The notes below the pieces were generated by a model, which was not told where the DNA came from, did not search any database, and was given only the letters and a program-made list of their open reading frames with translations. Of a stretch of DNA of 64,000 nt, positions 60,070 through 60,153 are shown piece after piece. Within the stretch, counting starts at the first letter, position 1, and each line of letters starts with the position of its first letter. The position numbers were made by a program, and so were the translations under genes. Location: assembly GCF_041248615.1 (NCBI RefSeq), contig NZ_CP158426.1; one strand, given 5' to 3'. This DNA is from Escherichia coli (GTDB taxonomy: Bacteria; Pseudomonadota; Gammaproteobacteria; Enterobacterales; Enterobacteriaceae).

Positions 60070-60084
60070 TTTATTTTAAATTTT

Positions 60085-60096
60085 CCCGTCAAAGAG
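60085..60096 (+). promoter_or_regulatory. ChiX sRNA pairing site in the chbB-chbC intergenic region
   Basis: CCCGTCAAAGAG is complementary to the ChiX seed CTCTTTGACGGG as I recall it; a hairpin plus T tract follows at ~60110-60140. Confidence 0.5.
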
Positions 60097-60153
60097 TTAT
60101 TTCATAAATCAATACCGCAATATTTAAATTGCGGTTTTTAAGGGTATTTTTCT

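Follow-up and report, generated by a model that had tools for sequence, protein, structure and literature searches.

The chbB-chbC spacer of Escherichia coli: a conserved ChiX pairing site that very probably is the known decoy for this small RNA

What is the function of the 84 nucleotides that separate chbB from chbC in the chitobiose operon of E. coli, and do they form the trap for the small RNA ChiX that an earlier note on this DNA had recognised in them? In the window, by which we mean the whole 64 kb stretch that was analysed, the list of open reading frames and the RefSeq annotation of record NZ_LT599825.1 place chbB (PTS N,N'-diacetylchitobiose IIB subunit) at 59749..60069 on the + strand, with its TAA stop codon at 60067-60069 marking the end of the upstream cistron, and chbC (PTS chitobiose IIC permease) at 60154..61512 on the same strand, with its ATG at 60154. 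The intercistronic spacer occupies 60070..60153 (+), exactly where the earlier note had put the chbB-chbC spacer of E. coli. According to the open reading frames and the RefSeq annotation, the genes on its 3' side are chbC and then chbA, chbR and celF/chbF; the spacer is transcribed within the chbBCARFG mRNA, and all of it belongs to the decoy module described below.

The record NZ_LT599825.1 (isolate NRZ14408) matches the last 24 kb of the window at 100%, the next best record reaching 99.2%, and its chbB end (2,495,740) and chbC start (2,495,825) correspond to window positions 60069 and 60154. The 1.3 kb around the spacer show 100% identity to many E. coli chromosomes, on which osmE, chbB and chbC are annotated. 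A 101-nt query that spans the spacer (60060-60160) has 100% identity to K-12 MG1655 and finds a match in 5404 of the 5426 complete E. coli genomes, with at least 99% identity in 5385 of them, which agrees with the earlier description of the element as part of the core genome. An Rfam scan of 58500-62000 gave no family match at E <= 1, and the spacer is without an Rfam family.

The proposed partner, ChiX, is also known as MicM, SroB and RybC. In NZ_LT599825.1 it is encoded at 3,943,706-3,943,789 on the - strand, between ybaP and ybaK and 1.45 Mb from the chb spacer, and it is recognised as Rfam family RF00368 (sroB) with 81.1 bits; in K-12 MG1655, chiX is the annotated ncRNA b4585 (507,204-507,287), recognised as RF00368 sroB with 82 bits. 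The K-12 ChiX sequence is present with 100% identity in 5012 of the 5426 complete E. coli genomes and with 95-99% identity in 410 more, so that 410 of 5422 genomes carry a non-identical ChiX. The only difference between the ChiX of NZ_LT599825.1 and that of K-12 is found at nt 37 (A37U).

The sequence CCCGTCAAAGAG occurs a single time in the window, at 60085-60096 on the + strand, and its exact reverse complement is ChiX nt 47-58 (CUCUUUGACGGG), which is present in the ChiX of both K-12 and NZ_LT599825.1. In the mRNA, this proximal pairing site (60085..60096, +), CCCGUCAAAGAG, establishes 12 contiguous Watson-Crick pairs with the small RNA. In the duplex predictions it is followed by an internal loop of 2 x 2 nt, in which UU at 60097..60098 (+) lies opposite ChiX U45 and C46, and by a distal pairing site, AUUUCAUA at 60099..60106 (+), which forms 8 pairs with ChiX nt 37-44 (UAUGAAAU). 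The earlier note had described 60085-60096 as complementary to the ChiX seed and had proposed, as a check, an alignment with ChiX from the same genome; with the ChiX of NZ_LT599825.1, the seed is complementary at 12 of 12 pairs, to which the 8-pair distal helix, unmentioned in the note, is added. The U37 of this ChiX pairs with A60106 and brings the distal helix to 8 bp, compared with 7 pairs for K-12 ChiX, which has A37; the predicted duplex energies are -29.6 and -28.5 kcal/mol, respectively. This lengthening of the distal helix by one pair through A37U is a modest addition of the present analysis.

The predicted duplex stands out from its background. In 2000 shuffles of the spacer, the energy of -29.6 kcal/mol was never reached (mean -10.6, sd 2.9, best -24.0). 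When nt 22-60 of K-12 ChiX were slid in 40-nt windows along the two strands of the 64 kb, the spacer ranked first among 25,584 windows, with -28.5 kcal/mol versus a mean of -10.2 (sd 2.9), while the runner-up, with -25.8, had a gapped structure. These energies come from duplexes of the single-stranded ChiX segment, complemented by cofolding, which were used in place of a full-length RNAduplex of ChiX and spacer; the long duplex of -36 kcal/mol that the latter returned was rejected as spurious, given that it ignores intramolecular folding.

The site is also predicted to be accessible, with a mean unpaired probability of 0.72 for 60085-60096 versus 0.40 for the region. When ChiX in full length and the spacer are cofolded, the helices between them persist against intramolecular folding (ddG -19.7). 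C60085 and C60086 lie opposite ChiX G58 and G57, which form the first two pairs at the base of the ChiX terminator stem, and we infer that these two cytosines invade that stem. Thermodynamics alone predicts no such invasion, because in the minimum-energy dimer G57 and G58 stay in the terminator stem and 10 of the 12 proximal pairs form.

If the spacer is selected for pairing with ChiX, how is it distributed among related organisms? A ChbB search yielded 80 loci from as many species; all their chbB-chbC spacers were extracted and 70 distinct sequences, from about 75 species, were aligned. Across these sequences, which include that of Salmonella enterica subsp. diarizonae, conservation within the spacer is highest at the 12-mer. 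Most enterobacterial genera share a common architecture, in which a U/A-rich tract and the pairing site are followed, after a variable linker, by a hairpin, UUUAAGGG, a spacer and the ATG. CCCGTCAAAGAG is invariant in Escherichia, Citrobacter, Salmonella, Enterobacter, Lelliottia, Leclercia, Raoultella, Trabulsiella and others, the exception within Escherichia being two lineages in which its first C has been lost.

Some loci depart from this arrangement. In Raoultella and in 'Enterobacter sp. JUb54' (four loci, positions 1822-1990), the spacer measures 167-169 nt, compared with about 80 elsewhere, and the extra segment of about 85 nt lies upstream of an intact ChiX site. Kosakonia oryzendophytica (positions 1822-1894 of its locus) has kept the hairpin and the Shine-Dalgarno sequence and has no recognisable ChiX-complementary 12-mer, and in the five Aeromonas loci the gap between chbB and chbC is only 10-14 nt long and contains no decoy. 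A typical Enterobacteriaceae spacer was also found in CACSKA010000006.1, labelled Chryseobacterium sp. 18061, whose ChbB is 95% identical to that of E. coli; the contig itself is most likely enterobacterial and the assembly mislabelled or contaminated.

A first variant is that of Proteus, whose spacers have CCAGTCAAAGAG at the pairing site, the whole pairing region reading CCAGUCAAAGAG-C-GAAUUUUUCA. The published seed of the P. mirabilis small RNA, there called MicM, is UGAAAAAUUCCUCUUUGACUGG, and a primer in the same study confirms GACUGGCCG in P. mirabilis MicM (PMC4355480). When Proteus and E. coli are compared on the basis of this seed, a C-to-A change in the spacer is matched by a G-to-U change in the small RNA, CCAGUC pairing with GACUGG, and the distal helix has been rewritten in both partners, GAAUUUUUCA pairing with UGAAAAAUUC over 10 bp across a 1-nt bulge. 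The cognate Proteus duplexes reach -29 to -31 kcal/mol, while Proteus MicM with the E. coli spacer reaches only -16.5. This co-variation of decoy and small RNA between genera is likewise a modest addition of our analysis. The chbBC-IGR/MicM/ImpR circuit of P. mirabilis has the same architecture as that of E. coli, with a U-rich tract, pairing site, hairpin and Shine-Dalgarno sequence, although both partner sequences have changed in step and the Proteus hairpin is shorter; overexpression of the Proteus chbBC intergenic region lowered MicM and raised the ChiP homologue in P. mirabilis (PMC4355480). In Proteus, the decoy circuit also affects carbapenem susceptibility via this homologue.

A second variant is present in Buttiauxella and Cedecea, which have TCCGTCAAAGAAC at the pairing site and AAAGGAAA where the other genera have UUUAAGGG. 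In these seven loci the variant site can be written as UCCGUCAAAGAAC(G/A)ACC, with a different 3' flank and AAAGGAAA as the Shine-Dalgarno context, and its sequence predicts that the ChiX of these organisms would have a correspondingly altered seed or distal region.

Complementarity, its significance, predicted accessibility, conservation and the covariation of both partners in Proteus are observations of this study, and they fit an element that is already known. In 2009, Figueroa-Bossi and colleagues and Overgaard and colleagues reportedly described a chbBC anti-ChiX decoy, or 'trap-mRNA', in E. coli K-12 and Salmonella. The element of the window is the same, in the same operon context and with the same partner; its spacer is identical to that of K-12, the partner ChiX of the isolate carries A37U, and the spacer of Salmonella enterica subsp. 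diarizonae has an identical 12-mer and an identical distal site, ATTTCAT. We have very little doubt that the chbB-chbC spacer is this decoy, in other words a trap, sponge or target mimic directed against the small RNA ChiX, and no observation speaks against it. To annotate it as such is correct for a regulatory element of the core genome, but does not amount to a discovery. To our knowledge, the chbBC decoy is the first bacterial mRNA segment that acts as a target mimic destroying a small RNA.

For the decoy activity itself, for the decay of ChiX, for the association with Hfq and for the ChiX-chbBC chimeras formed in vivo we draw on the literature, which supports the earlier note's view of the chb intergenic region as a ChiX trap (PMC7815308, PMC4098024, PMC4474525, PMC8383071, PMC5145812). 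The chbBC intergenic region sponges ChiX and promotes its decay (PMC7815308, PMC4098024, PMC8383071), and a further report agrees on its role as a decoy or sponge (PMC6582626). Pairing changes the ChiX 3' terminator region, which makes the small RNA sensitive to PNPase (PMC4474525). In a genomic-library screen, all 25 of 25 ChiX-silencing clones carried the chbBC intergenic region (bioRxiv 10.1101/2021.05.11.443692), and RIL-seq recovered the ChiX-chbBC interaction on Hfq in vivo (PMC5145812). A 2026 preprint describes synthetic sponges engineered from the chbBC decoy element.

The way in which the spacer could act is clearer when it is compared with chiP (ybfM), for which the K-12 sequence was used. 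The K-12 chiP 5' UTR, annotated as chiZ, contains ACGUCAAAGAGGAUUAACCCAUG; its site CGUCAAAGAGGA pairs with ChiX nt 45-56, overlaps the Shine-Dalgarno sequence and has a predicted energy of -22.7 kcal/mol. Both sites, CGUCAAAGAGGA in chiP and CCCGUCAAAGAG in the spacer, pair with the same ChiX seed, and they have in common the core CGUCAAAGAG and a U/A-rich tract that lies upstream; by virtue of this common core, the chb spacer mimics the chiP target. The differences lie in position and extent, since the chb site is situated 48-69 nt upstream of its AUG, pairs with nt 47-58 and adds the distal helix, with energies of -28.5 to -29.6 kcal/mol, and, unlike the chiP site, extends into the terminator stem of ChiX by 2 nt. 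The fragment ChiZ, derived from the chiP 5' UTR, also sponges ChiX (PMC7815308).

A mechanism that is consistent with these data would run as follows. ChiX, made constitutively from its distant gene, silences the chitoporin mRNA chiP by pairing over the ribosome-binding site. Once chitosugars induce chbBCARFG, each chb transcript would supply an accessible site (60085-60106) that imitates the chiP target via CGUCAAAGAG and captures ChiX through nt 47-58 and nt 37-44. The register, which compared with chiP is displaced by 2 nt towards the 3' end of ChiX, would bring the site into contact with G57 and G58 where the terminator hairpin begins, and this shift is a plausible sequence basis for the change in the ChiX 3' terminator region that, according to the literature, exposes the small RNA to degradation. 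ChiX would then drop and chiP be de-repressed, so that the outer-membrane pore would be made only alongside the inner-membrane uptake and catabolic genes. The decoy would in this manner couple the synthesis of the outer-membrane chitoporin to the induction of the operon for chitobiose uptake and catabolism.

Among the other readings of the site, the one that survives best is that it is primarily a conventional repression target, through which ChiX shuts off chbC and the distal genes under leaky transcription, the decoy effect being a mere reciprocal consequence at high transcript levels. We regard this as a real possibility, albeit a doubtful one. The site does sit in the chbC 5' leader, and in 2014 Plumbridge and colleagues reportedly found that ChiX also dampens chb expression when the operon is uninduced; chbC has likewise been named as a ChiX target elsewhere (PMC10710024). 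The pairing region (60085-60106), however, ends 48 nt before the chbC AUG, with a stable and conserved hairpin in between, and because of this distance and this hairpin the site would be unable to occlude the ribosome-binding site in the way that ChiX does on chiP. Furthermore, both the genetic screen and the sponge literature indicate that loss of ChiX is the dominant outcome. Given that 48-69 nt and a stable hairpin separate it from the AUG downstream, 60085-60106 probably serves mainly as a decoy and not as a translational operator of the classical type. One role does not rule out the other; the same site may repress chbC when the operon is expressed at low levels, which is compatible with its role as a decoy.

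The hairpin that intervenes between the pairing region and chbC is found at 60114..60135 (+) and consists of an 8-bp stem, ACCGCAAU/AUUGCGGU, with 4 G-C pairs and a 6-nt loop (in the DNA, ACCGCAAT/ATTTAA/ATTGCGGT); its predicted energy is -10.5 kcal/mol (z = -2.96), and its arms have a predicted unpaired probability of 0.03. In the alignment of 70 spacers, the hairpin pairs are formed in 92.8% of the cells, compared with 18-56% in controls in which the 3' arm was slid by 1-3 columns. Five of the eight pairs have changed on both sides, for example the closing pair, where G-C replaces A-U, and the top of the stem, where C-G or G-C replaces U-A; the covariation score was reached by none of 500 shuffles. 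These compensatory changes across Enterobacterales, together with the shuffle test, indicate that the structure of the hairpin is under selection, which is the third modest addition of this work. We used an explicit count of pairs instead of RNAalifold, which on the spacer alignment recovered only 3 hairpin pairs because gaps due to loop length misalign the outer pairs and the Proteus rows.

The earlier note had also described this hairpin as carrying a T tract. That part holds less well: the hairpin is present and TTTT does follow it, while the tract is short and its conservation is limited to Escherichia and a few Citrobacter. In the mRNA it is UUUU at 60136..60139 (+), replaced by A/C and UUU in most other genera; in the DNA the run is TTTT, or five T if the T that closes the stem is counted, after which come AAGGG, nine bases and the chbC ATG. 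The sequence at this position is GGUUUUUAAGGG in Escherichia and a few Citrobacter and GG(U/C)(A/C)UUUAAGGG in most genera. As an intrinsic terminator, 60114-60139 would have the required stem-loop and lack a conserved U run directly after the stem. A conserved terminator is unlikely, given the short tract, its lack of conservation outside these organisms and the read-through that the five downstream genes need.

What, then, could the hairpin be for? Candidates are a structural insulator, a processing or exonuclease barrier and, in Escherichia, a weak terminator. In a literature search, whose reach did not extend to the original descriptions of the decoy, we found no statement on the 60114-60135 hairpin. 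We put forward, only tentatively, that it is an integral and so far undescribed part of the decoy module, for example as a barrier to 3' exonucleases or processing boundary, or else as a structural insulator. In the first case, the boundary would yield a stable chbB-spacer sponge fragment; in the second, the hairpin would keep the ribosome-binding site of chbC as well as the ChiX site free of base pairing.

A related proposal takes the hairpin and T tract as a partial intrinsic terminator or as a processing or stability element, in which case a short chbB-spacer RNA with the 3' end typical of a small RNA, a hairpin with a U tail, would be the actual sponge. The energy of the stem, its G-C pairs, the UUUU that follows in E. 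coli and the compensatory changes that maintain it speak in its favour, as do the model figure of the Proteus study, which proposes that a chbBC IGR RNA is released by processing (PMC4355480), and the fact that other sponges, such as SroC and ChiZ, are fragments of this kind. Nevertheless, we judge it unlikely: only 4 U follow the stem before the chbC Shine-Dalgarno sequence, the A/C and UUU of most genera indicate that the U run is not what selection keeps, and the five genes downstream require read-through. A consensus terminator scan made no + strand call at the hairpin, but it also missed the clear terminator of osmE, so its negatives carry little weight. The - strand call that it made at the hairpin was rejected, being the palindromic image of the same stem at a place where no gene ends. 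The Term-seq supplement of PMC7815308, obtained in media in which chb is uninduced, lists no 3' end for chbB or chbC. The osmE intrinsic terminator itself, at 59482-59508 (+), reads aaaccggc-cattgc-gccggttt followed by more T.

The remaining reading, that the complementarity to ChiX is a functionless chance match in an AT-rich spacer, is practically inconceivable and is refuted by our data, for although CCCGTCAAAGAG with at most one mismatch is expected about 0.26 times by chance in 64 kb and at least one match appeared in 24 of 100 shuffles, the exact match extends to 20 pairs, the extended 21-nt pattern CCCGTCAAAGAGNNATTTCAT is unique in the window (0.02 expected even with up to three mismatches), the duplex is the best in the window and was equalled by no shuffle, the site stays the same from genus to genus in a spacer whose flanks diverge, it covaries with the small RNA in Proteus, and the decoy has been documented experimentally (PMC7815308, 10.1101/2021.05.11.443692, PMC5145812).

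The decoy of the spacer can also be placed among other sponges. SroC, directed against GcvB, and 3'ETS-leuZ, directed against RyhB and RybB, are likewise segments of co-regulated transcripts that neutralise an Hfq-dependent small RNA by base pairing; they act as excised, stable fragments and trigger decay through RNase E, whereas for chb the route described leads via the terminator region of ChiX and PNPase, with the intact mRNA as the presumed acting species (PMC4474525).

Two further elements of the spacer flank the pairing region and the hairpin. Directly 5' of the pairing site, the 15 nt at 60070..60084 (+), UUUAUUUUAAAUUUU, are composed of U and A only, and a U/A-rich tract occupies the same position in most enterobacterial spacers, its composition being kept rather than its sequence. 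The targets of class II small RNAs such as ChiX are expected to carry UA-rich, rim-type Hfq sites, and for this reason we consider 60070-60084 a putative Hfq-binding site of the rim type. On the other side of the hairpin, AAGGG at 60140..60144 (+), 9 nt before the AUG, is likely, from its position and sequence, to be the Shine-Dalgarno sequence of chbC; it is part of the block UUUAAGGGUAUUUU, nearly the same in most genera, and its AAGG core is invariant in 70 of 70 spacers.

Outside the chb operon, the window contains a match to a small RNA family and an accessory segment. At 10764-10906 (+), in the accessory part, isrN (RF01396, 'isrN Hfq binding RNA') is matched over its full length with 138 bits, at the level of the Rfam gathering threshold; this small RNA was first described from a Salmonella island. 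A segment at about 40400-45120 adjoins ynjA and includes a tyrosine recombinase/integrase CDS (43930-45117, - strand), frameshifted genes for polysaccharide deacetylase and glycosyltransferase, and a phosphoethanolamine transferase that is truncated. Only 29 of the 5426 E. coli genomes cover at least 80% of window positions 40000-64000, which indicates that the left part is a rare integrated island.
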